DNA of 34,562 bases from Planctomycetaceae bacterium (GTDB taxonomy: Bacteria > Planctomycetota > Planctomycetia > Planctomycetales > Planctomycetaceae). Numbering within the stretch: position 1 is the stretch's first letter; the number at the start of each line of letters is the position of its first letter. The notes below the pieces were generated by a model, which worked only from the letters and a program-made list of their open reading frames with translations, did not search any database and had not been told where the DNA came from. This document shows positions 2,012-30,608 of this stretch, in pieces. The stretch spans positions 1 to 34,562 of the forward strand of contig JALQWE010000001.1 of NCBI GenBank assembly GCA_023258825.1, read 5' to 3'. The position numbers and the translations under genes were made by a program.

Positions 2012-3397
<1,386 letters not shown>

Positions 3398-8578: not shown

Positions 8579-8580
8579 CC

Positions 8581-8950
8581 CCCGAAAGGTGCCACCCACC
8601 CAATCAGATCCCCCTGCCCGAAAGGTGCCACCCACCGGTGCTGAAGGTGCCACCCATCCAATCAGGCCCCCTGAGGACCCCAAACTGGGCAAACTGGGTG
8701 CCACCCACCGTGGCAATGCAGCCCGTTCGTATTCGCAAACACCGCTCATTAGGCTTTGTCGTCTGTTTGGAAGGTCGAATGGGCCCAGATTCGGACATAC
8801 TGGCCTTTTTCTCCACGACACAGTAAGCGAAGCACCCATGGTGCCCCCCACTTTTATCGAGCAACGCAACCAAACGCTGCCGACACAAAGAGATGGACAC
8901 AAAGAGGTGCCACCCATCCTGATTCAAAATCTGGGTGCCACCCACCGTGA
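8581..8950 (+). repeat. cluster of seven same-orientation GGTGCCACCCA motif copies (REP-like intergenic repeats)
   Basis: Motif copies at 8588, 8624, 8646, 8697, 8840 (1 mismatch), 8906 and 8934. Longer perfect sub-repeats are CCCGAAAGGTGCCACCCACC at 8581 and 8617, and CTGGGTGCCACCCACCGTG at 8694 and 8931. Confidence 0.85.
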
Positions 8951-9224
8951 TGCAAATTCTGCGTTCGGAAACAAAACCAAAGCACTGTGCTATACCGATC
9001 GTGACGCGTCGCGCCGGAAACCGAACGTTGTGTCGGCCCCCAATTACCGACACGGAAGTCTCCTATTTTCTACCGTTGACCATTTCCACTGCGGATTAGT
9101 TATCAAGAGTCTCAGAAGGACCTACTTGATCTCACCGCCCCTTCGCTGTAAATCTCAGCAGTTCAGGGTCGACTCGATGTCAAACCACCGTCTTCTTCGA
9201 TAGCAATTCAGTGCCCTGAAAAAG

Positions 9225-10292
9225 TTGGCCCTCGTTATCTCCCACACTCGGAGTCCACAGACCATGTCACACCTGAGTTCAGCCACTTCTTCCACGCGTC
9301 GCACATTTCTACAGGCGTCTGCTGCAATCGCTTTGGCAGCGACAGCGGCCCCGGAAATCGCAGCAGATCAGGATTCCGAGACTTTGATCCCCGCTGTTGA
9401 TACCCATCAACATCTGTGGGATCTGTCAAAACTGCAGTTGCCGTGGTTGAAGGGGGCGCCCAAGGTGCTCAGCAGGACCTATGGACTAAAGGAGTATGCG
9501 GAAGCCACGCGGGGCCTCAACGTTGTCCAGGCTGTGTACATGGAGGTCGACGTACGACCAGAAGATCACGTACTCGAGGCACAGATGCTTGTTGACATCT
9601 GCCGATCGGGTAAAAGTCCGACTGTTGCTGCGGTGATTTCCGGCCGCCCCGGACTTCCCACGTTCGAACAGTACATCCGCAATCTGGCCAAATCCCCGGA
9701 AATTCGCGGAGTTCGGCAAGTCCTGCACTCAGAAACAGCCCCCAAAGGAATGTGCCTCGAAACTCAGTTTGTCCGATCAATTCAACTCCTCGGGAAACTC
9801 GGCCTTAGTTTTGACCTCTGTATGCGACCGCAGGAACTGTCAGACGGAATCGCACTCGCAAAAAAATGCCCGGAAACTCGATTTATCGTTGATCACTGCG
9901 GCAATGCCGACCCTGCATCGTTTCTGGCAAAGCCTCTCCCAAACATATCACCGAAGCACGATGTGCAGAAATGGCGTGACGATATCGCTGGCCTCGCAGA
10001 CTGCAGCAACGTGATCTGCAAGATCTCCGGCGTGATCGCCAGTGCACCAAAGGAAGTCCCTTTCACCGACTCACTGGCTCCAATCATCAACCATTGTCTG
10101 GACTCGTTTGGCCCCGACCGTGTCATTTTTGGAGGAGATTGGCCAGTTTGCCTGCTGGGAGCCAGTTACCGGGAATGGATCACCACGCTTCGAACCCTGA
10201 TCGCCAACAGACCTCTTACGGAGCAGAAAAAGCTGCTTCATGAAAACGCACGTCAATTCTACAGGCTTCCTGCGGAGTCCCGCACACCCTGA
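9225..10292 (+). CDS. amidohydrolase-2 family metal-dependent hydrolase with a twin-arginine (Tat) signal
   Basis: 355 aa. Tat motif STRRTFLQASAAIALAATAAP, metal-binding VDTHQHLWD near the mature N-terminus, and C-terminal DHCG...GGDWPV typical of PF04909-type TIM-barrel hydrolases. The start may instead be the ATG at 9264. Confidence 0.75.
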   Translation: MALVISHTRSPQTMSHLSSATSSTRRTFLQASAAIALAATAAPEIAADQDSETLIPAVDTHQHLWDLSKLQLPWLKGAPKVLSRTYGLKEYAEATRGLNVVQAVYMEVDVRPEDHVLEAQMLVDICRSGKSPTVAAVISGRPGLPTFEQYIRNLAKSPEIRGVRQVLHSETAPKGMCLETQFVRSIQLLGKLGLSFDLCMRPQELSDGIALAKKCPETRFIVDHCGNADPASFLAKPLPNISPKHDVQKWRDDIAGLADCSNVICKISGVIASAPKEVPFTDSLAPIINHCLDSFGPDRVIFGGDWPVCLLGASYREWITTLRTLIANRPLTEQKKLLHENARQFYRLPAESRTP

Positions 10293-11144: not shown

Positions 11145-11337
11145 GATGCCCTCCAGTTGTACTCACCGACTGATGGCACACCAACAACTCCACACCCGTG
11201 TTATTATTCGACAATTCAACACATCCGCCACAACCCCAACACGAACCACCCGCTCGCCGTCCCCCGCCTTTGACAATATTCTTTCCTGGCCTGTGAGCCC
11301 TGCTGCAGAAACTGCCGAACTCTCCACCTTGGTTCCA

Positions 11338-11348
11338 GGTGCCACCCA
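11338..11348 (+). repeat. solitary GGTGCCACCCA motif copy
   Basis: Exact 11-mer within CCAGGTGCCACCCACTGG, in the 527-bp intergenic region between two minus-strand genes. Confidence 0.7.
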
Positions 11349-11671
11349 CTGGCTCGGCTGCAGGCAGTTTGTGCGTCACTCAGTATCCTTCCGGGGCGTT
11401 TTCAGTACATTCCCGCAGTGACCTATGCCTGAAAATCCGGGTGTGTTTTCGGTCAACAAACGCAAGCTGGGGCTACCAGAGTAACGCTTTTTCAACTTGC
11501 GAAAGGTGGCCCAGCATCTGACGAAGCAGGACAGTCCCGATATCACTGAAAACAGCCTCTGACGACCGAATCAGCGGCAGGGACTGGTTTCTCGCGGGTA
11601 TTTAGCGCGAACGCGGTTCACTTGCACTCAAAAGAAGTGGCAACACGACCGCAGTGAGGTCTTCGCAATTC

Positions 11672-12777: not shown

Positions 12778-14025
12778 TTACCAGTTCCCGATGCCCCACG
12801 GCAACACCTCCACTGCGTCGCCCTCATCGTAGGCCCCGTGCTCGGGTTCCAGGCAAGCAAACCCGTTTGCCGTAACCATAGCAAGCAGATCAGCTGAATT
12901 GGTCCACGAGACGGGTTGGGCTTCCAGTGTACCATTTCCCCCGCTGAGAACCACGGGCTGATACACCGGACGGTCACCCCGAACCTGACAGCGTTGACTG
13001 AGAACCGCAGTACAAGGAACGGGATCTGCTAATCCCAGAAATCGCCCCAGGGCTGGTCTCACAAATAACTCAAAGCAAGCCAAACTGCTGACAGGGTTAC
13101 CAGGAAGCCCAAATACGAGGCAGGTGTGCGAGTCGGACCGGAAAACGCCAAACCAAACAGGCTTACCCGGCTTCATCCACACGCCGTGAAACACGCGTTT
13201 GACTCCCGCCAACAGCAACTGCTCCGGAACCAAATCCCGAATTCCGACAGACACCCCGCCCGTCATCACAAGTACGTCCGCTTGCAATCCTTCCAGAATC
13301 TTCAGCCTCAGATGTTTCGGATCATCATCGCAAATGCCCAGCACTTGAGGAAGCGCCCCTGCCGTCAGTGATTGCGCGGTTAGCATTGGCTGGATAGAAT
13401 TTCTGATCTGCCCCGGCCCGGGTGATGCTCCTGAAGGAACCAATTCACTGCCGGTAGAAACAATCGAAACAGTTGGGCGGCGCGAGACCAATACATCAAC
13501 GATTCCCAATTCGGCCATCGCTCCAATTTGTGCCGGCCGCAGGTGAATTCCTCCTTTCAGAAGGACCTCTCCCCGCCTTGCAATAGCTCCGGCTGTAAGA
13601 ATATTAAGACCGGAACTCATCTGACTCACCGGGACACCAACCCACTCCGGATCTGGGACATCGACCTGAACTCGCTCAACCGGAACAACACATGCACAAT
13701 TCTGCGGAATCGGGGCGCCCGTCATGATCTGCATCGCCTCCTGAGAATTCAGGCGACGACTGGAAATGCGACCAGCCACAATCGAGTCCACAACCCTGAG
13801 ACGGAGCAGTCCCGATGGCGGCACATAGCCACCTATTCCTGCGACATCGTCAGCGGAAATGGCAAATCCGTCCATGGTTGCCTTTGAAAATGCCGGGACA
13901 TCTTCTGGTACGACGATCGACTCCAGAAGTACTCGCCCAAGCGATTCTACCAGCGGCACCCGCTCCGAACCCGGAATGGGAACGTGGTCAAGAACCGCCT
14001 TCAATGCGTTTGAAACTGTGTACAT
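12778..14025 (-). CDS. moeA: molybdopterin molybdenumtransferase
   Basis: 415 aa with MoeA domain order and the MoCF-binding segment VLVMTGGVSVGIRDLV. ..GLPGNPVSS.. is also typical. Confidence 0.9.
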   Translation of the reverse strand: MYTVSNALKAVLDHVPIPGSERVPLVESLGRVLLESIVVPEDVPAFSKATMDGFAISADDVAGIGGYVPPSGLLRLRVVDSIVAGRISSRRLNSQEAMQIMTGAPIPQNCACVVPVERVQVDVPDPEWVGVPVSQMSSGLNILTAGAIARRGEVLLKGGIHLRPAQIGAMAELGIVDVLVSRRPTVSIVSTGSELVPSGASPGPGQIRNSIQPMLTAQSLTAGALPQVLGICDDDPKHLRLKILEGLQADVLVMTGGVSVGIRDLVPEQLLLAGVKRVFHGVWMKPGKPVWFGVFRSDSHTCLVFGLPGNPVSSLACFELFVRPALGRFLGLADPVPCTAVLSQRCQVRGDRPVYQPVVLSGGNGTLEAQPVSWTNSADLLAMVTANGFACLEPEHGAYDEGDAVEVLPWGIGNW

Positions 14026-14214
14026 CTCGCAACACTTCTCGGAGATTCCGTCAAAAAGGTTCCAGTATCGTCCCCAATCATAGCAAACCCCCGATCGGTG
14101 CCATCCATTTTTTGACCAAGGCTCTTACGTCGCACCGCGGACCATCGCGCGGACCAATACCACCCACATCTCGTGACAGATCCCGTGACGTACGCGCCGG
14201 GTGGACGCGTGCCA

Positions 14215-14225
14215 GGTGCCACCCA
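14215..14225 (+). repeat. solitary GGTGCCACCCA motif copy upstream of the Y1 transposase-like gene
   Basis: Exact 11-mer within CCAGGTGCCACCCATCTGC, 425 nt upstream of the GTG at 14650. Confidence 0.7.
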
Positions 14226-14649
14226 TCTGCTCAAGCCACAACGCGAGGACGTGCTACAAAACCTCAAGTCCTGTCGCTCACAATGTGAGTAAATTGGAAG
14301 ATATCGCAGCTGCCCGACGTCATTTCAACCACCTATAGCGCAAGGGCTTATCTGTTCGCGCGATCGCCAGTGTCGATTCAGACTGACCAATTGCAGGCGG
14401 GTCAAATCTGGGCTGCGACACCGCAAGACGGAAAGCTGGCATGCCACGAACCACGACACAACCCACAAAGCCCACCCAGTCACTACAACCCCAACAATAC
14501 CAACTCTCAACCCGAACAGAAAAAATCATCACCCCAGGAATTCCGATTCACCTTGAATAGGGCGGTATTCTATATACCCTAAAGGCTGAATATGCATACC
14601 ACCAAAACCTACTGTCATTCAGGTCACTTTTAAAAACAGCGAGGCCCAT

Positions 14650-15693
14650 GTGCCAAGAGCCAATCGTCGCGAGATCTGCAATCCGGATCAAATCCAGGTT
14701 TTTCACCTGGTCAATCGTTGTGTTCGCAGAACATTTCTATTCGGCACCGATGAGAAATCTGGAAAAGATTTCTCACATCGCAAGGCATGGATCCGACAAC
14801 GCCTTGAGGAACTCGCTGGAATTTTTGCTGTTGAAATTCTGGGCTTCGCGGTGCAAAGCAATCACCTGCATGTCGTCGTGAGAACTCGACCTGATGTGCA
14901 GAAGGGGTGGAATGATACGGAAATTGCCCAAAGGTGGTTACGACTGTTTCCGCAACGTCGTAACGAAGACAAGTCATCATGTGAACCGAACGACGCTGAG
15001 CTAAGCATTATCCTCAGTTCGGCCTCGACTCTGCTCAAGTTACGTAACCGACTCATAAGTATTTCGTGGTTCATGCGATGCGTGGCGGAGCCGATTGCGC
15101 GGCGAGGAAATCTTGAAGATGATGTCACTGGAAGATTCTGGGAAGGTCGCTTTCGAGCTCAGAGCTTACTGGACGAAAGCGCCATTGCTGCATGCATGGC
15201 CTACGTGGACTTGAATCCAATCCGATCCGGACAGGCCCTGACACCGGAAACCAGTGAATTCACCAGTGTCCGCGAACGTATCCTGGATCGCCATGATGCA
15301 GTGAACCAGCCAACTCGAGACGATGTGACCGACGGCATAGAACACGGCCCGAGGGCTGGCTGGTTATCTCCGATCAGTCTTGAAGCGTCCTCGGAACCAT
15401 CACGCAACAAAATCACGCATCGCCGAGCGAGCAACAAGGGATGTCTTCCCATGACGCTGGACCAGTATCTCGAACTGCTGGACTGGACAGGCAGACAACT
15501 GAAACAAAACTCTGGCTCCATACCACAGGAATTCCCCTCAATTCTCGAAAGACTGGACTACAAACCAGCACAATGGCTGCTTTACGTTCGACAGTTCAGG
15601 AAAGTCTTTCGAAGCGATGCGGGCACTCCGGCAAATCGCACAATATTTCGCCAACAACGTCGTTCCCGCCGCGCGATGCTCGCTGGAACCTGA
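14650..15693 (+). CDS. IS200/RAYT-like HUH Y1 tyrosine transposase homolog with a long C-terminal extension
   Basis: 347 aa with a GTG start. N-terminus MPRANRR...FHLVNRC, HUH motif SNHLHVVV, and the catalytic Tyr context FWEGRFRAQ...CMAYVDLNPIRSG. There is no partner tnpB. The gene is flanked by the GGTGCCACCCA repeats. Confidence 0.8.
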   Translation: MPRANRREICNPDQIQVFHLVNRCVRRTFLFGTDEKSGKDFSHRKAWIRQRLEELAGIFAVEILGFAVQSNHLHVVVRTRPDVQKGWNDTEIAQRWLRLFPQRRNEDKSSCEPNDAELSIILSSASTLLKLRNRLISISWFMRCVAEPIARRGNLEDDVTGRFWEGRFRAQSLLDESAIAACMAYVDLNPIRSGQALTPETSEFTSVRERILDRHDAVNQPTRDDVTDGIEHGPRAGWLSPISLEASSEPSRNKITHRRASNKGCLPMTLDQYLELLDWTGRQLKQNSGSIPQEFPSILERLDYKPAQWLLYVRQFRKVFRSDAGTPANRTIFRQQRRSRRAMLAGT

Positions 15694-16047
15694 AGGAAAT
15701 GACTTCGACTGGATTCCATGCTCTCCTGACCATTGGCCAGCCTCAGGCAATACATCTCTGTCTATCTGTGTCTTGCATACAAAAGGATGGTTTCCACTGC
15801 CGGATTGTCAAAGAGTAGCAACCCCTCTGAATATCCAGCCAGGTCCCGCCGAAGCACCATCACCGGTCTTCCGAACAAAACTTGGCGATTTCGCCGGATG
15901 CTTTGCCAATGGACCTGGCCGTCAGGTTCGAGCCCCCTCGATAGAATCGATCAAAAGACGTACTTTTCGCATGCGGATTTCCCGCAGCCCGGTCAATGTT
16001 GACATTAACGCACGTGTATCGTGCTGCTGCATCACGTCCGAAAGGCA

Positions 16048-16640
16048 ATTTCGCATGATCAATAATGCCACCCGCTCAACGCTGGTCGCTTTAGGAGTTG
16101 AAAGTGCCACCCACTGGAGTTGAAAGTGCCACCCACTTGCCAGCACCATCGCTCTCGTTGAAAAACAAAGCGTCCATGCTGAGTACCGGCTGAACTGCGG
16201 GGCAAGCTGGTCTTTCCTGATTCGGAATCCGGCCCCGTAAATCATCTCAACAAAGATGGGTGGCACTTTCAAGGGTGGGCGGCACGTTATGGGCGGCGGC
16301 GGCATCACGCCTGGAAGGCCATTTCGCATGATCAATAATGCCACAGCTCGACGCCGGTCACTTCAAGAGTTGAAGGTGCCACCCATTTGCCAGCACCATC
16401 GCTCCCGTTGAAAAACAAAACGTCCACGCTGAGTACCGGCTGAACTGCAGGGCAAGCTGGTCTTCCCTGATTCGGAATCTGGCCCCGTAAATCATCTCGA
16501 CAAAGATGGGTGGCGCCGGATTTTCATTCCTGAATTCCTCAAAAGTGGGTGGCACTGTCGAGGGTGGGTGGCACGTAATGGGCACGGCACGCAATGGGCA
16601 GCACACTATGGGCAGATTCTCGATGGTAACGCAACTTTGC
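16048..16640. repeat. tandem ~250-273-bp mosaic repeat (two units) built from forward and inverted GTGCCACCCA motifs
   Basis: Both units open with ATTTCGCATGATCAATAATGCCAC (16048 and 16321). 16117-16266 aligns to 16367-16516 at about 93% identity. Motif copies are forward at 16103, 16125 and 16375, and inverted at 16257, 16276, 16507, 16546 and 16565. Confidence 0.9.
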
Positions 16641-16738
16641 GGATTTGCTGAGTGGTGCTCGCCCATGCATAATACCGTACCGGCATCGATTCAGACTGTC
16701 GGCATTGGGCACCAGCATTTTTCAGGTTTCGGGAACTC

Positions 16739-17416
16739 ATGAGTTTTGATGTCGAAATACGTGCTGTTGTGTTTGACCTCGATGGCACCATGCTCAACAC
16801 AGAAGATATCTTTGAGCTGGCGGGACAGGAACTGATGGCGCGTCGAGGGCTGCAGATGACGGACCCCATTCGCCGTGCCATGCTGGGACGACGACCGCAC
16901 GAGGCCTTTACCGCTCTTAAGTCACTGGCCCACCTGCCGGATGAGGTCGAGGACCTGATGGCCGAGACAAAGCAGATCTTTCGAATACTGGCCGAGAATT
17001 CACTCGCCCTGATGCCTGGCCTGCCCGAAATACTGTCGCTCACGGATGCACGTAAGTTGCCCCGAGCTGTCGCAACATCATCACCTCGGTCCTATCTGCA
17101 GTGGCTGCTTCAGAAACTACAACTTCAGCCACACTTTGTTTTCGCACTCACGGCCGAGGACGTCACGCACGGAAAGCCTCATCCTGAAATCTACGAGGTA
17201 GCGGCTCAACGTCTTGGTGTCCATCCATCCCAGATGCTGGTACTTGAAGACAGCGAAACCGGCACCAGAGCCGCAGCGGCGGCCGGAGCTTTCGTGGTCG
17301 CGGTTCCAAATCGACATACAGACTATGGGGATTTCAGTATGAGCCATCTTCGGATTGAAAGCCTTCTGGACGAGCGACTGCACACCCTGCTCCGCAGCTC
17401 CAGTGATGAATCCTGA
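16739..17416 (+). CDS. HAD-superfamily hydrolase, subfamily IA (phosphatase / beta-phosphoglucomutase-like)
   Basis: 225 aa. Motif I VVFDLDGTMLNTE, motif II ATSS, and motif III/IV KPHPEIY...LVLEDSETGTRAAAAAG. Confidence 0.88.
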   Translation: MSFDVEIRAVVFDLDGTMLNTEDIFELAGQELMARRGLQMTDPIRRAMLGRRPHEAFTALKSLAHLPDEVEDLMAETKQIFRILAENSLALMPGLPEILSLTDARKLPRAVATSSPRSYLQWLLQKLQLQPHFVFALTAEDVTHGKPHPEIYEVAAQRLGVHPSQMLVLEDSETGTRAAAAAGAFVVAVPNRHTDYGDFSMSHLRIESLLDERLHTLLRSSSDES

Positions 17417-17476: not shown

Positions 17477-18439
17477 GTGAATCAGCCCATTTCCCCAGGA
17501 AGACAGTCGTCCCTCGGCTCACCTCGTCACGATGCCACACTTCTACCATGGCTTCGACTACTTCGACTTCCAACAGTCTTTACTGCATTATCCAATATTT
17601 TCTGCGGCTATTTCATCACGCGGCGTCCGGAGGTTGCTGAACTCCCGCAGCACTACGATCTTTTCTTTCTGCTCATGTCCAGCGCTGGACTGTATCTGGG
17701 TGGAATGGTGCTCAATGACGTTTTCGACGCGAGTCTCGACGCCGTAGAACGACCGGAACGCCCGATTCCGTCGGGTCAGATCACACTCCGTGCCGCCGCT
17801 GTTTCTGGTTCAGTGCTCATGATCTCAGGAATTCTCAGTGCGGCTTGTGCAGGTATCACCAGCCTGGTAATTGCGATCATGATCACAGTCGCAGTCATTG
17901 CCTACAACGCGAGGCTCAAGGCTACTGTTGCTGGCCCACTGGCAATGGCGACCTGCCGATTTCTGAATCTCCTGCTGGGAACAAGCAGCGGAGTTTCCCT
18001 TTCCAGCCTGGGCACAGGATCAGGCCTTGAAGCCGCATGTGGACTTGGTCTTTATATCCTCGGAGTTACCTGGTTCTCCCGAAGTGAAACAGGAACTGGT
18101 CACCGAATCGGCATGCTGACCGGAGTTGCGTTGTTGATATCAGGCCTGGGACTTGACGCCCTGGTGGTCTACCGTCACGGGGCTACCGCAGCTGCCACAA
18201 ACGGAGGGTGCATGGCCATTCTGGTGCTGGGGCTGAACCTTGCTATGCGTGCTACAAGTGCCATCACACATGGTGGACCAGTTCGGATACAGAAAACTGT
18301 CGGACTGATGCTCCTCAGCCTGATCTTTCTCGATGCCATCATGGTTTTCTCACTGTCAGGTAACGCCAGACTCGCTGCGATCGTTATCTCCCTTGTGGCC
18401 CCCGCGATGTTGTTGCGCCGGGCAATTCCCATGAGTTGA
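17477..18439 (+). CDS. UbiA-family aromatic/polyprenyl prenyltransferase (integral membrane)
   Basis: 320 aa with a GTG start. It has the Asp-rich motif NDVFDASLDAVERPERPIPSG and about 8-9 hydrophobic helices. Confidence 0.85.
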   Translation: MNQPISPGRQSSLGSPRHDATLLPWLRLLRLPTVFTALSNIFCGYFITRRPEVAELPQHYDLFFLLMSSAGLYLGGMVLNDVFDASLDAVERPERPIPSGQITLRAAAVSGSVLMISGILSAACAGITSLVIAIMITVAVIAYNARLKATVAGPLAMATCRFLNLLLGTSSGVSLSSLGTGSGLEAACGLGLYILGVTWFSRSETGTGHRIGMLTGVALLISGLGLDALVVYRHGATAAATNGGCMAILVLGLNLAMRATSAITHGGPVRIQKTVGLMLLSLIFLDAIMVFSLSGNARLAAIVISLVAPAMLLRRAIPMS

Positions 18440-19224: not shown

Positions 19225-19713
19225 CCAATTCCCTCCAAACCGCACGCTTGCCTCGAGGGTTGTTCCTGATACAGTCCCTTCAGATGGTCTGGTTTCAGAT
19301 CATCCGTCTGATCAGGTGCTCGCGGACAGCCTCATCAACACAGGTTGTGGGTGCGAGTGAAAAGGGAAGACGGTGCCCGATCATGATCGGTATTCCGTCG
19401 CGGTCCCGCCGCTGTAATCGGGGACTGTCGTAGCAATCAGCCACTGTGTCTATGCCGTTTTGTACAAAGCCCGGCAGGCACGGGAAGGCGTTACGATGGG
19501 TCGATCCGAAAGCCAGAAGACCTGCCGGATCAGACAGCAGACGTTTTCCTCGCGGAAGGGAAGTTGTCGGCACAGAACCTAAGCGATTTCCGGGCTGCTG
19601 ATGATGACCCCCCGTCAAAAAGCAGTGCTGCTGCGCGCCTCTTCTGCCGCAACATCTGAAATCGGCCACCTGTCGCCGGAAACTCCCAAACATCGCCAGA
19701 TTCGGAGTTTTCC

Positions 19714-20616
19714 TTGATTCCTCGACCTCGTGCCCATCGCACACATCGCGCATTCACCCTGATCGAATTGCTTGTTGTTATTGCCATCATTGCAGTCCTC
19801 CTCGGACTATTGCTCCCCGCTGTTCAGCAGGCCCGCGAAGCCGCTCGAAAAACGCAATGTCGCAATAATCTTAAACAGCTCGCGCTGGCACTGCACAACT
19901 ACGCTGAGGTGTATCACGAACATCTGCCTCCTTACGTGATTGAAAATCAGCAAAGGCTGACATTTCTCACCACCTATTCCGGAAACCCCGGAATGGCTCA
20001 GTATTGGTTTGGCACCGTCGACTACGTCGCCCCTACACCGGAAACTCAATTGAGCTTCTCCACCGGGCCACTCAGCCCATTTATGGAAACCAACTACGAA
20101 TCCTTTCAATGTCCGAATTTCGGTACATCGCAAATGGATCGGGTTCGCTTTGGCAGGCCCGCTACCGGATTTGGCTACAATGGCTACTACCTGTCCAGAC
20201 CAAGTGGCATTGAGTGGTTACCGCCGGACTGGAACGCCGGTCCCAGCCCCGAACCCGCAAGTCGGCAACTGCGTGATGTTCAACAAACCAGCCAGACAGT
20301 TCTTTTTGCGGACAGCGCGGCCGTCAACATCAAAACATTTTCGCCCCTTGAATTCAGCTTCGAGGAAAACTGGTTGCTGGATCCACCCAGTCGCAACTTT
20401 CCAACAATTCATTTCCGACACCTGAATTCAGCCAACGCAGCCTTTCTGGACGGACATGTGGAAAGTTTTTCATGGGCAACCTCAGTAGAAGTTCCCGGCG
20501 AAAACTACCTGTTTGAAGAACAGGTTCAGCTCATGGAAAAGAAACGACTCGGGTTCCTTTCACGGGGAAATCTCCAGAATCCAGCGTTACGCGATGAACT
20601 GTACGACCGTGAATAA
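19714..20616 (+). CDS. DUF1559 protein with a type IV pilin-like N-terminal cleavage/methylation signal
   Basis: 300 aa with a TTG start. The N-terminus is [51 protein letters not shown]. The C-terminal ..NAAFLDGHV.. is typical of the planctomycete DUF1559 family. Confidence 0.9.
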
Positions 20617-21103: not shown

Positions 21104-22423
21104 TTGCCTCAAGGCCAGAAAAAGTTTTCAGGCCTACCATCGGCTCAAGTCCTTGAAAAAGATCCCACACCCTGTCGACAGATTTTCAGCATTGGCCGGC
21201 TCAACCCAGGCCGCACATTCAAAAAACCATTACCTTTCGAAGACGATTACGACGGCACGACTCCTCTACCGGCAATCTGTTCCGTAGTTCATGGATACAA
21301 ACTGATGGCTCTCCGCATTGAGCAGTCTGTCGTTCGGGGCGAAATCCGCAATTCCCGCAGAAACTCGATCTCCGGGTGGATCGAGATTCGTCGGCATGGA
21401 ATCAGGGATGGCCAGCCGATGACAGAAACAGTCCTCGCAACCCTGTCCCTCGTTGGAAACCTTGACGGTCAACTTGACGGGCGCGATTTCCGATTTCGGG
21501 TCAGGGAAGGCGACTCCTCCCAGGTGCACTCCGTACCGGAAGAAGCCTTTCACCTGCAGCAGGTCGGTGTCATCGGCGATAGCGTCTTTCGCATACTGCG
21601 AGTTCCTCTGATCCCAATCGAAGAGTTCCTGCTGGCCAGACAACGAGGAGACGCTGCCCCGGAAGAACTGCGCATGTCCGTTTATCTCGAATGGTACAGC
21701 CAGAATGGTCGCGTCGTGATGGAACTCCTCGATCCGGAAATGGATTTCGATGACGGCGAAAGGCATCTCGCGGATTGCACGCCGGATAATCTTCCTGATA
21801 CAGATCAGGTACTGCCACCGTCCATCACCACACTTTTGCGTCGCGAAGATGGAACAGTAGAAGTCTTTGACACTACACCAGACTCGGTCCTCGGCGACAA
21901 CGACTCACAGAACGAGACTGACGATGCACACTCGGCTGATGATGAATACGGCCTCTTCGAATCCAACTTCGAGCAGTTGATTCGAGAATCTGCATTGAGC
22001 GATATCCAGGACTCTGAAAGTACCAGCCAGAGTCACTGGGATGAGCTGATCCCGGGCATCCCACCTGCAATTAAGGCTCTGTATGAGCAGTGGGATGAAG
22101 TTCTGCACGGGGAACACGATCAACCATTGACCTCATTATTCGAGGAACCGCTGCGACTTCCGATACCCGGCAATCTTACCACCGAAAAGCAGGCATGGGC
22201 GGCATTGTCCTCGTTGCTAGGCGCCATGGCGATGCGAGGTGTAGGCTTTGAAATGTGCCCACATCTCAGCGCTACTGAGGCTTACAGAATGCTTGTGACA
22301 GACCTGCTGCCCGAAGTGAAGGTGCACCCGAATCTGTTGAATTCAGGCTTCGTCTGCCACCTCAGCTCGTGGGAATCCTGTGAAGAATGTCAAAACGAAG
22401 CCGACAGTGGGCCTGATCAATGA
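21104..22423 (+). CDS. hypothetical protein with an acidic central region (orphan; start uncertain)
   Basis: 439-aa ORF from TTG 21104. The first ATG is at 21305 (MALRIEQSVVRGEI..., 372 aa). It is the longest ORF in any frame here. I recognise no motif. There is an Asp/Glu/Ser-rich segment (..DNDSQNETDDAHSADDEYGLFES..) and a Cys-containing C-terminus (CHLSSWESCEECQ). Confidence 0.55.
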   Translation: MPQGQKKFSGLPSAQVLEKDPTPCRQIFSIGRLNPGRTFKKPLPFEDDYDGTTPLPAICSVVHGYKLMALRIEQSVVRGEIRNSRRNSISGWIEIRRHGIRDGQPMTETVLATLSLVGNLDGQLDGRDFRFRVREGDSSQVHSVPEEAFHLQQVGVIGDSVFRILRVPLIPIEEFLLARQRGDAAPEELRMSVYLEWYSQNGRVVMELLDPEMDFDDGERHLADCTPDNLPDTDQVLPPSITTLLRREDGTVEVFDTTPDSVLGDNDSQNETDDAHSADDEYGLFESNFEQLIRESALSDIQDSESTSQSHWDELIPGIPPAIKALYEQWDEVLHGEHDQPLTSLFEEPLRLPIPGNLTTEKQAWAALSSLLGAMAMRGVGFEMCPHLSATEAYRMLVTDLLPEVKVHPNLLNSGFVCHLSSWESCEECQNEADSGPDQ

Positions 22424-29273: not shown

Positions 29274-29582
29274 AAAAACAATCGAATCCACAACCACGCT
29301 ATCACACTCTCCTGTCGTTCCCCCAAGGCTAAACACCGACTTCCCGATCCCCAACTAAGGTTCGGCCAACTGAGGAGAAATTCCCCGGCGGCGAAAAATT
29401 CTCCACCAAATCGGCCACCCAATCACCGCCTTTTCTTCGAATTCCGTCAATCAGACTCCGGTACGGAATTTGCCAATCTGCCTACCTCGATGTCATTTTT
29501 CCGGAAACATTTCCAAAACTCTGAGCTACCGATTGTCTGCCATGAACGTTCTCAGGGGCGATGGATTACACAGGGCATTCGC

Positions 29583-30608
29583 ATGAAAAACGATCTGCGT
29601 CGCCGATCAAGCGGATTCACGCTCATCGAATTACTTGTCGTGATTGCGATCATTGCAATTCTCGTCGCTCTTTTGCTGCCTGCCGTTCAACAGGCCCGAG
29701 AAGCCGCTCGCCGAACTCAATGCCGAAATCACTTGAAGCAAATTGCCCTCGCCGTGGCAAACTACGAGTCCGCTTTCGGTCTGCTGCCACCCAGCATGGC
29801 AGTAAATCCCAATCTGACCACAAATGCCTCATGGTCTATTCACGGTCGCATTCTTCCGTATCTGGAACAAGTGTCGCTGTATCAACAAATTGATCTCTCG
29901 AAATCGTGGGGTAACTTTCCGGTTATCAGCAATTTTCGAGTTCCCGTTTACGCATGTCCGTCCGACCCGAAATCTGATCGCCCACGCGATACAGGGACCA
30001 ATGGAATTTTTCTGCTCCCCACCTGCTACGGCTTCAATTTCGGAACATGGCTGGTCTACAACCCCGTTACGGGCGCTGGCGGCGATGGCATCACTTTTCC
30101 GAACTCCCGTATTCGTTTTGCTGACCTGACCGACGGAACCAGCAATACCCTGCTGGCTTCAGAGGTACACGCATGGACCGCCTACACCAGAAATGGCGGA
30201 CCACCGTCCACTGCCGTCCCGAATACCATTGCCGACGTGGCCCTCTACGCAGCCTCCGGATTACGAGATCGGATCCTGCCAGCAACAAAAGATGGAACGG
30301 GACACACGGAATGGGCCAATGGCCATTCCCACCACAGCGGCTTTACGACCACACTCACGCCCAACTCAAACGTCGTCTTTGTCGATAACGGTGTCACTTA
30401 CCAGAACACGGACTACGCGTCACGCCAGGAAGGCAGTTCCCTGACGTCTGTCAGCTATTCCGCACTGAACTCTCGCAGTTATCACACGGGAAGTGTTCAC
30501 TCTGCTCTGTGCGACGGCTCTGTTCGAGTCGTCAGTTCCAGTATCGATCTCAGAGTCTGGAGAGCACTTGGAAGCCGCGATGGCGGGGAAGTAGCAACTG
30601 GTTTCTGA
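29583..30608 (+). CDS. DUF1559 protein with a type IV pilin-like N-terminal cleavage/methylation signal
   Basis: The ATG at 29583 gives [61 protein letters not shown]. The C-terminal ..ALCDGSVR.. is typical of the family. The track start at 29490 adds an unlikely leader. Confidence 0.9.

Follow-up and report, generated by a model that had tools for sequence, protein, structure and literature searches.

A subclass 2.3-type Y1 HUH gene and its oriented, hairpin-free repeats at a planctomycete locus

REP-associated tyrosine transposases (RAYTs) and their REP repeats are the textbook example of a domesticated transposase that lives with its own miniature repeats, and all characterized REP/RAYT cases use, to our knowledge, hairpin DNA. 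Here, we analyze a gene for a Y1 HUH protein, open reading frame (ORF) 14650-15693, and the short repeats that surround it in a Planctomycetaceae bacterium. The window, that is, the whole stretch of DNA analyzed, is an entire metagenome contig of 34,562 nucleotides (nt). In our best reading, the locus is a RAYT-like cassette without hairpins. We judge it probable that it represents a domesticated, chromosomally fixed cassette of the TIRtron type, in which an intact Y1 nuclease of TnpA_Y1 subclass 2.3 is bracketed by its oriented cognate site, RGTGCCACCCAY. We know of no DNA partner or function previously reported for subclass 2.3.

The closest solved fold to the window protein belongs to the RAYT/REP-REPIN systems (E. 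coli TnpA_REP, PDB 4ER8; Pseudomonas groups 2 and 3). These systems resemble the locus in their vertically inherited gene, apparently single at the locus, in the inverted flanking repeats and inverted doublets, and in repeat variants that are specific to a lineage and change along with the gene. However, REPs are palindromic hairpins with a 5′ GT[AG]G, and the window repeats lack both features. The window protein is also double the length and has an additional insertion and C-terminal domain, and REPs are dispersed genome-wide in high copy number, whereas the window copies are known from four intergenic regions of one 34.5-kb contig. The window protein is set apart from the classical RAYTs (Bertels groups 2 and 3; subclasses 2.2 and 2.5) and matches subclass 2.3. 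BIME mosaic clusters are similar in that short oriented units are mixed with other modules in intergenic mosaics. The iteron arrays of HUH Rep origins share a phasing of about 22 base pairs (bp). Both are resemblances only; nothing was found to connect the window repeats with a replication origin or with host factors known to bind BIMEs. The IS200/IS605 TnpA proteins (IS608, ISDra2) share the Y1 HUH catalytic core. They are about 150 amino acids (aa) long and carry a Y...Q motif, and their elements have subterminal hairpins, frequently a tnpB gene, ends on the same strand and multiple near-identical copies. In contrast, the window protein has 347 aa and Y...NP, and its locus has no hairpins, no tnpB and inverted ends, and is apparently not multi-copy in its lineage.

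RAYT-like genes with non-hairpin flanking inverted repeats have been described as TIRYTs within TIRtrons (Di Nocera, De Gregorio & Rocco, 2013; PMC3733652). Their repeats form moderately abundant families that occur as singles, dimers or clusters, and many share GGGGWSAS (PMC3733652); the described TIRYTs were placed in subclasses 2.1, 2.2 and 2.5, not in 2.3 (PMC6006769). The locus likewise combines a RAYT-like Y1 gene with non-hairpin inverted repeats that stand as singles (11338), dimers (8695/8697) and clusters (8588-8944 and 16097-16575). GGGGWSAS resembles the core of the family analyzed below (GGGACACC...); although the window variant GGTGCCAC / AGGTGCCAC is not a strict GGGGWSAS, the (A/G)GGGACAC of some gammaproteobacterial relatives is a near fit. 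Neither the 22-nt phased tandem arrays nor the promoter-abutting left copy seen here appear in the TIRtron descriptions.

The Y1 HUH protein and its family

14650..15693, + strand: Y1 HUH gene of the TnpA_Y1 subclass 2.3 type, 347 aa (by ORF, motifs, profiles and fold model)

An earlier note on this DNA had read a HUH motif (SNHLHVVV) and a Y1 catalytic-tyrosine context (MAYVDLNPIRSG) in this ORF, and its product carries both. The protein motifs are N71-H72-L73-H74, W164-E165, Y185-VDLNP and T205-S206, and the catalytic residues are invariant in 36 homologs, together with their neighbors (N71, H72, H74, W164, Y185, D187, L188, N189, P190 and T205). In profile searches, Pfam Y1_Tnp matches residues 18-83, the HUH half, with E = 8e-4, slightly under its gathering score, and NCBIfam REP_Tyr_transpos matches residues 156-199, the Tyr half, with E = 6e-7 and 29 bits against a cutoff of 80. 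The NCBIfam IS200 model gives E = 0.07. A sequence search of the PDB with the single sequence found no match, and with a profile it reached only E = 1.3 (ISDra2 TnpA). An AlphaFold2 model was built from the 36 homologs, with a mean predicted local distance difference test score (pLDDT) of 73. Its top PDB match in Foldseek is 4er8_A, the E. coli TnpA_REP with a REP hairpin (E = 7e-4, probability 1.0), followed by the TnpA structures of ISDra2 and IS608 (2xm3, 2vic and 2a6m among them) and by Sulfolobus IS200-type transposases.

In the AlphaFold2 model, a helical insertion of about 55 aa (approximately residues 81-135) lies between the HUH strand (72-79) and a long helix (138-156) that precedes the Tyr helix, and an all-helical C-terminal domain of about 150 aa spans approximately residues 195-347. 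The C-terminal extension had been put at 190 aa in the earlier note; it is really about 150 aa past the tyrosine, and the remainder is the helical insertion. The C-terminal domain has no Pfam match at E values up to 10, and when it is modeled alone (AlphaFold2, pLDDT 68) it has no significant PDB match, so that we make no claim of a helix-turn-helix. As had been noted, no tnpB occurs among the neighboring genes, and anti-phage defence models gave no match.

Subclass 2.3 was defined by Quentin, Siguier, Chandler & Fichant (2018; PMC6006769). Its proteins have a median of 325 aa and the motifs NHYH, WE and YVDLNP. The distance from HuH to Tyr is about 110 aa owing to a conserved 55-aa insertion between β3 and αC, in addition to which about 10 aa lie between β1 and αA, and the tail consists of a proximal TS motif and a subclass-specific distal domain (PMC6006769). 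The window protein has the same WE, YVDLNP, TS, insertion and tail, and a distance of 113 aa from H72 to Y185, but NHLH, with L for Y, instead of NHYH. The distal block LDWTGRQ is common to the window protein and a gammaproteobacterial homolog (L045), which has NHYH, WE and YVDLNP. In tblastn searches, the identity is 37-43% over residues 1 to about 325 to loci of Pseudoalteromonas, Thalassotalea, Alteromonas, Shewanella and Microbulbifer, and full-length homologs at 37-43% occur in Verrucomicrobia as well as in numerous marine Gammaproteobacteria. The window protein thus matches TnpA_Y1 subclass 2.3, a match that rests on motifs and full-length homology and not on the published subclass hidden Markov model.

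The family is large. More than 6,600 relatives of the window protein are found in a 90%-clustered set, where the IMG name is 'REP element-mobilizing transposase RayT', and 1,195 clusters of a 50%-clustered library match at E ≤ 1e-30; PGAP labels the gammaproteobacterial homologs 'transposase'. As published, the subclass occurs mostly in Chromatiales and Alteromonadales, where a genome has about 3.9 copies, and it is stated to have yielded no REP-like sequences (PMC6006769). Bertels et al. sought repeats by genome-wide 16-mer abundance, and none of their groups equals 2.3. The locus differs from the published picture in its planctomycete host, in its syntenic and apparently single gene, and in its conserved oriented flanking motif.

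An oriented motif in the window, around homologs and in metagenomes

With both strands counted and at most one mismatch allowed, GGTGCCACCCA has 23 matches in the window. In 100 dinucleotide-preserving shuffles the count is 0.82 ± 0.94 with a maximum of 4, and none of the shuffles reaches 23; the over-representation claimed in the earlier note is real. The most frequent 10-mer of the window is GTGCCACCCA, with 16 exact copies, and the most frequent 9-mer is TGCCACCCA, with 17. The consensus of the aligned copies is R-GTGCCACCCA-Y, and the flanks are weak. Gene boundaries were taken from ORFs backed by Pfam or by gene calls on sister contigs. By these boundaries, the strong copies all lie in four intergenic regions: 8579-9224 (9 copies), 11145-11671 (1), 14026-14649 (2 intact and 2 degenerate) and 15694-16738 (8). 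These are 4 of about 12 large intergenic regions in the window, all of them close to the Y1 gene, and no strong copy is more than 6 kb from it. Since strong copies occur only in these gene-adjoining intergenic regions, the motif is intergenic, as had been claimed, and clustered around ORF 14650-15693. Four one-mismatch matches lie within genes (6246, 7969, 29783 and 33898), no more than chance predicts.

The copies of the window are as follows.

8588..8944, + strand: nine-copy cluster between an unknown 342-aa gene and an Amidohydro_2 gene, starting 10 nt past the stop codon; spacings 36, 22, 51, 143, 66 and 28 nt
8695/8697 and 8932/8934, both strands: full dyads TGGGTGCCACCCA, which read TGGGTG-C-CACCCA
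11338..11348, + strand: solo copy, intergenic, downstream of the pseudouridine synthase gene
14097..14107, + strand: left-side copy GGTGCCATCCA of the T variant, with tttt-TTGACC after it; the start codon of moeA is 72 nt away
14159-14166, + strand: degenerate copy ACCACCCA
14215..14225, + strand: upstream copy GGTGCCACCCA, lineage-specific C variant, 425 nt 5′ of the Y1 start codon
14470-14478, + strand: degenerate copy GCCCACCCA
16097..16135, + strand: two tandem 22-nt units, GTTGAAAGTGCCACCCACTGGA then GTTGAAAGTGCCACCCA; left arms of doublet 1
16257..16288, − strand: inverted copies TGGGTGGCACTTTCAA and GGGTGGGCGGCAC, the latter degenerate; right arms of doublet 1
16546..16575, − strand: a right-side pair of copies, 19 nt apart, opposite in orientation to the upstream copies and 164-193 nt ahead of the HAD gene
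16040-16300 and 16313-16600, no strand: two tandem modules of about 250-290 nt (by pairwise alignment and repeat families)

The plus-strand positions given in the earlier note are right (8588, 8624, 8646, 8697, 8840 with one mismatch, 8906, 8934, 11338, 14215, 16103, 16125 and 16375), as are 16257, 16507, 16546 and 16565 on the minus strand; the remaining one, 16276, is a two-mismatch minus-strand copy, GTGCCGCCCA. The note overlooked 14097 and the both-strand reading of the two dyads. Its distances from the gene, 425 nt upstream and 410 nt downstream, are correct. The GGTG-C-CACC dyad that it took for the repeat core is probably incidental, and the conserved oriented part is GCCACCCA. The spacing of the window copies has its mode at 21-23 nt, which corresponds to about two turns of the helix. 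Flanking stems of at least 5 bp are absent from all window copies, and none carries a GTAG head. A promoter and terminator scan of 13950-16800 gave nothing beyond shuffle expectation, and no known RNA family matched in the repeat regions.

To place the motif in its family, we compared 80 homologous loci. The exact window motif is essentially absent from the 80 loci, with one match; thus, each locus was searched for its own repeat, and each has its own enriched flank motif. Sharing of 9-mers between flanks was dropped as a locus test, because chance sharing was too high, and a family-wide k-mer census was used instead. On the plus strand within 300 nt upstream, GACACCC occurs at 34/66 loci and ACACCCA at 31/66, compared with 7/188 and 6/188 control windows, respectively, and their complements predominate downstream. 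The family core is an 8-mer, G[AC]CA[CT]CCA, which takes the form GACACCCA in gammaproteobacteria and GCCA[TC]CCA in planctomycetes; the variants named across the family are GACACCCA, GCCATCCA, GCCACCCA and GGACAG. Within 400 nt upstream of the gene, the core lies on the plus strand at 45/69 loci and on the minus strand at 1/69. Within 700 nt downstream, the minus strand carries it at 40/68 loci and the plus strand at 4/68. Both arms of the rule, plus upstream and minus downstream, are found together at 32/64 loci, and the background is 0.23 per kb over both strands. The motif and its polarity are therefore conserved around homologs from Planctomycetota to Gammaproteobacteria. The window follows the same rule, with 14097/14215 (+) upstream and 16546/16565 (−) downstream. 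The earlier note had called the nearest flanking copies direct, not inverted, which is true of that pair only; inverted copies are also present downstream.

The upstream copy is linked to the promoter region. It is mostly found about 70-110 nt 5′ of the start codon, and TTGAC follows the proximal upstream copy within 22 nt at 22/48 loci, compared with 1/76 downstream copies. A flanking stem of at least 5 bp is present in 8% of the family copies and in 4% of the controls. The hypothesis that the motif is the loop of a stem-loop, as in the CAATCGG-TGCCACCCA-CCGATTG arrays and at the Microbulbifer locus L037, holds for a minority only and was rejected as a general rule. Family copies generally have no hairpin, and were therefore probably overlooked by REP searches.

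JGI metagenome contigs were scanned for pairs of GTGCCACCCA copies at a distance of 8-30 nt, which gave at least 120 loci. Among those listed the spacing mode is again 21-23 nt, and none of them comes from the window's own species. Many are long arrays with interspersed modules of about 100-140 nt, and the hairpin form is present in at least 19 loci. A stop-free-stretch test for coding did not discriminate among the arrays, as the repeats themselves generate long spurious ORFs. Some of the loci, long contigs with non-coding arrays, carry DUF1501, DUF1549 and DUF1553 genes of the planctomycete type. This array pattern is as dispersal in trans predicts, without proving it. Seven loci (L105, L170, L134, L140, L144, L173 and L180) contain long non-coding arrays of ccaATCG-GTGCCACCCA-cc with a 22-23-nt period, in which the final unit closes an 8-bp stem (CCAATCGG/CCGATTGG) with TGCCACCCA as the loop, again with modules of about 100-140 nt interspersed; no Y1 gene occurs in the DNA retrieved for these seven. 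One short contig (L209, 5352 nt) has two fragments of subclass 2.3 homologs, one at each end, which are 76% and 46% identical to the window protein, and two GTGCCACCCA copies directly upstream, in the plus sense, of the closer homolog.

The metagenome loci also bear on whether the motif is a chance or compositional artefact, or a set of repeats unrelated to the gene, such as sites of an unrelated host factor. Some of the doubled-motif matches are coding low-complexity repeats with periods of 15, 21 or 39 nt, and a Y1 homolog lies near the array in 1 (L209) of the 120 loci listed. Nevertheless, chance does not produce the observed count in any of the shuffles, and it gives no reason for an oriented motif that is conserved across phyla with plus-to-minus ratios of 45:1 upstream and 4:40 downstream. 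We regard this explanation as barely credible.

Mobile units in relatives and a fixed gene in planctomycetes

In gammaproteobacteria, the motif sits at the termini of gene-bearing 1.3-kb mobile units. Two loci of one Pseudomonadales genome, 1.9 Mb apart (L045 and L049), are 97% identical over 1,307 nt with unrelated flanks, and their homology begins at TGGACACCCAT and stops at TGGGTGTCTATTAT, that is, at the motifs. In Microbulbifer thermotolerans DSM 19189 (L037, 8900-20400), at least five motif-bounded 1.3-kb units, 84-88% identical, are accompanied by fragments. On the Saccharobesus litoralis plasmid NZ_CP026605.1 (L212), a motif pair at 18226 (+) and 21309 (−) encloses the Y1 gene together with a 420-aa hypothetical gene, and a gene-less inverted pair of 330 nt, 16995/17029 (+) and 17355 (−), adjoins it and lies beside toxin-antitoxin genes.

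Several further arrangements were observed at these and other relatives. Outside the element at L045, the left end with its TTGAC promoter module is present three times in tandem (9672-9960), and outside the element at L049 the right end of the mobile unit is present twice (11190-11290). The units of L037 are crowded into 11 kb with spacers of 0.5-1.2 kb, a local pile-up of the element. In the JGI contig Ga0590115_0001039 (L089, 899-3400), two distinct Y1/repeat systems stand side by side: a subclass 2.3 gene (899-1945) adjoins a 147-aa classical Y1_Tnp gene (2130-2573, −), which is bracketed by its own GCCGGCTGAAGCC arrays at 2052-2130 (−), 2634-2712 (+) and 3300-3378 (+). When this small classical RAYT was compared with the window protein by hhalign, the HUH strands aligned, and the overall alignment was not significant.

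In the planctomycete lineage the gene is stationary. The identical protein is encoded on seven contigs, and the six shown, from six different samples, all have the order moeA(−) / Y1(+) / HAD / ubiA. Accessions with the identical protein are SRR10083240, SRR10083287, DRR731563, SRR31243275 and ERZ27292787/8. The closest database relative is 65% identical, with none between 65% and 90% in a set of 5.8 billion proteins. This ortholog (P0003, on contig L087) lies within an eight-gene synteny of pseudouridine synthase, moeA, Y1, HAD, ubiA, phosphoribosyltransferase, DUF1559 and a conserved unknown ORF of about 380-440 aa. The neighboring proteins are 55-86% identical between the window and the ortholog contig, and the Y1 protein 65%. 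The synteny, and a Y1 identity bracketed by that of the neighbors, thus indicate vertical inheritance at one site, with the gene evolving like its housekeeping neighbors. The Y1 gene has kept its place between moeA and the HAD-hydrolase gene ever since the two lineages, now 65% identical in this protein, diverged.

An ordinary active multi-copy insertion sequence, seen once in the window by chance, would agree with the gammaproteobacterial relatives, which are multi-copy with defined ends and carry the PGAP label. For the window it is very improbable: the gene has the same context in the six contigs and in the ortholog, no close paralogs are found in the protein database, the left copy is distant from the gene, and on the right gene-less modules intervene.

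The ortholog carries a one-base variant of the motif, GTGCCATCCA / GTGCCATCCACCC, on the plus strand upstream once and on the minus strand downstream twice. Like the window, the ortholog contig also has copies in the neighboring intergenic regions 5′ of the amidohydrolase gene and 3′ of the pseudouridine synthase gene. The copy numbers compare as follows.

8579-9224, upstream of the amidohydrolase gene: window 9, ortholog 2 (T variant)
11145-11671, downstream of the pseudouridine synthase gene: window 1, ortholog 2
14026-14649, between moeA and Y1: window 2, ortholog 1
15694-16738, downstream of Y1: window 8, ortholog 2

The earlier note had proposed an atypical RAYT/REP pair. A single non-IS200 Y1/HUH gene with an enriched short repeat in a REPtron-like layout is indeed present, and the gene is not a classical RAYT. 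The REPtron-like core of the proposal is supported because the motif core brackets homologs across phyla and because the ortholog has its one-base variant in the same regions.

The C and T variants number 17 and 1 in the window, and 0 and 4-5 in the ortholog, respectively. The sole T copy of the window, 14097, agrees at 12/12 positions (CGGTGCCATCCA) with the upstream copy of the ortholog in an otherwise unalignable intergenic region, and it retains the motif-TTGAC module. From this alignment, 14097 is read as the conserved ancestral left copy and the C base as derived and lineage-specific. Downstream of the pseudouridine synthase gene, the window and ortholog copies are at non-homologous positions. 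The split of the variants, the aligned 14097 and the non-homologous positions therefore suggest turnover rather than static sites. The right-hand intergenic region is too diverged from that of the ortholog for positional orthology of the right copies. The pair at 16546/16565 is the likely original right side of the cassette, because its distance to the HAD gene is comparable to that of the ortholog pair, 136-181 nt.

The same comparison bears on whether the copies are cis-regulatory or architectural sites, in which case the protein would be a domesticated, sequence-specific DNA-binding factor and the phased arrays would be iteron-like platforms for transcription, replication or nucleoid structure, with no transposition. 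The 21-23-nt mode that the window and the metagenome arrays have in common would suit this, as would the proximal copy that abuts a TTGAC box in relatives, the one conserved copy in the moeA/Y1 divergent promoter region and the lack of hairpin potential. It is nonetheless an improbable account, since the motif marks the ends of mobile units in gammaproteobacteria, the HUH and Tyr residues are kept invariant although pure DNA binding would not need them, copy positions turn over between orthologous intergenic regions, and the C-terminal domain has no recognizable DNA-binding fold.

In the four intergenic regions nearest the gene, gene-less derivatives of the cassette have built up as solo sites, tandem units of 22 nt and inverted doublets. 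Downstream of the gene, each of the two tandem modules consists of a core of about 120 nt with one or two plus-strand copies before it and two or three minus-strand copies after it; the modules align with 84% identical columns, gaps counted. In module 1, the core is framed by TTGAAAGTGCCACCCA and its exact complement, a perfect inverted repeat of 16 nt made by the stretch 16119-16135 and the copies at 16257..16288; it encloses about 120 nt and gives a 155-nt doublet. As single-stranded DNA, 16095-16295 folds into nested long stems (−45.1 kcal/mol, z = −4.6). The gene-less inverted doublets of the window measure about 155-190 nt. The 22-nt tandem spacing at 16103/16125 is found again at 8624/8646, and the module material of 16040-16600 is missing from the shorter intergenic region of the ortholog (448 nt versus 1,046 nt).

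Weighing the cassette and its proposed activity

Several observations weigh against an active cassette with its cognate site. The motif is restricted to an 8-kb neighborhood of the 34.5-kb window, and about eight other intergenic regions longer than 200 nt contain no strong copy. The copies closest to the Y1 gene on either side share direct orientation, and the distance of the left copies to the start codon is 425-553 nt, compared with about 90 nt in most relatives. Across the family, the exact 8-mer core is missing in about one third of the loci, several of which have the variants GGACAG or AGTGCCAYGCAC. The coding repeats among the metagenome arrays and the scarcity of adjacent Y1 homologs belong here as well. 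The array positions in the three identical-protein contigs that were checked are those of the window, with no sign of ongoing activity or recent change. Lastly, the tandem 22-nt units and the duplicated 250-nt modules could be explained by replication slippage alone.

The last two points lead to a relic, that is, a stranded former transposon with its old ends, in which copies grew passively by slippage, tandem duplication and local recombination and the protein is inactive on them, with perhaps some other role in the host or none at all. The tandem 22-nt units and adjacent modules do resemble local duplications, and both the unchanged array positions and the confinement to the neighborhood of the gene would be expected. 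However, slippage does not place copies in four distinct intergenic regions or at non-homologous positions within a shared one. A relic also leaves without explanation the derived base in nearly all of the dispersed copies and the old base in the ancestral left copy, and it accords poorly with invariant catalytic residues in a gene that evolved no faster than its housekeeping neighbors. We therefore consider it unlikely.

For the domesticated TIRtron-type cassette, we propose the following activity. The protein would bind RGTGCCACCCAY, and would nick and rejoin DNA at or beside this site by HUH/Tyr chemistry, probably on single strands. In some gammaproteobacteria the same activity would mobilize entire units that include the gene. 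In the planctomycete lineage of the window, what would have multiplied near the resident gene is confined to gene-less elements, namely solo sites, tandem units and inverted doublets. Tandem arrays may be built by insertion beside an existing site, which would thus give rise both to tandem arrays and to clustered elements. The protein may also regulate its own gene through the promoter-proximal left copy, next to which relatives have a TTGAC −35-like box.

A further-reaching possibility, which we put forward tentatively, is that subclass 2.3 is a distinct HUH system acting on a short, non-hairpin, oriented site, G[AC]CA[CT]CCA, and that in planctomycetes it has become a domesticated 'array builder' whose 21-23-nt phased arrays and inverted doublets spread in trans across intergenic DNA and coevolve with the protein. 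If this is true, it would be a hairpin-free counterpart of the RAYT/REPIN partnership, and it would have been overlooked because searches targeted palindromes or abundant 16-mers.

Other features of the window lie outside this neighborhood. A cobalamin riboswitch at 19297-19543 (+; 108 bits) is located upstream of a DUF1559/N-methyl gene (pseudopilin-like, SBP_bac_10) at 19714-20616; a B12 riboswitch before a DUF1559 gene is unusual. An unknown 439-aa ORF at 21104-22423 follows the DUF1559 gene, and the ortholog contig keeps this gene order. A 156-nt direct repeat with 75% identity (19748-19903 and 29611-29766) reflects two DUF1559 paralogs (19714-20616 and 29490-30608), whose N-terminal regions it matches.

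RAYT-like Y1 genes with non-hairpin inverted repeats, the TIRtrons, are already known, and so is subclass 2.3 itself. Relative to the published descriptions that we compared, three features are new: subclass 2.3 has a conserved oriented motif with a defined polarity and a promoter link; this motif delimits mobile units in some genomes; and a planctomycete clade is found in a domesticated state, with locally multiplying, concertedly evolving, 22-nt phased arrays. The large subclass 2.3 family thereby gains a concrete and testable candidate for its DNA substrate, and within one family there is a natural series from mobile element to resident gene. Repeat surveys built on palindromes or 16-mers miss this class of repeat.

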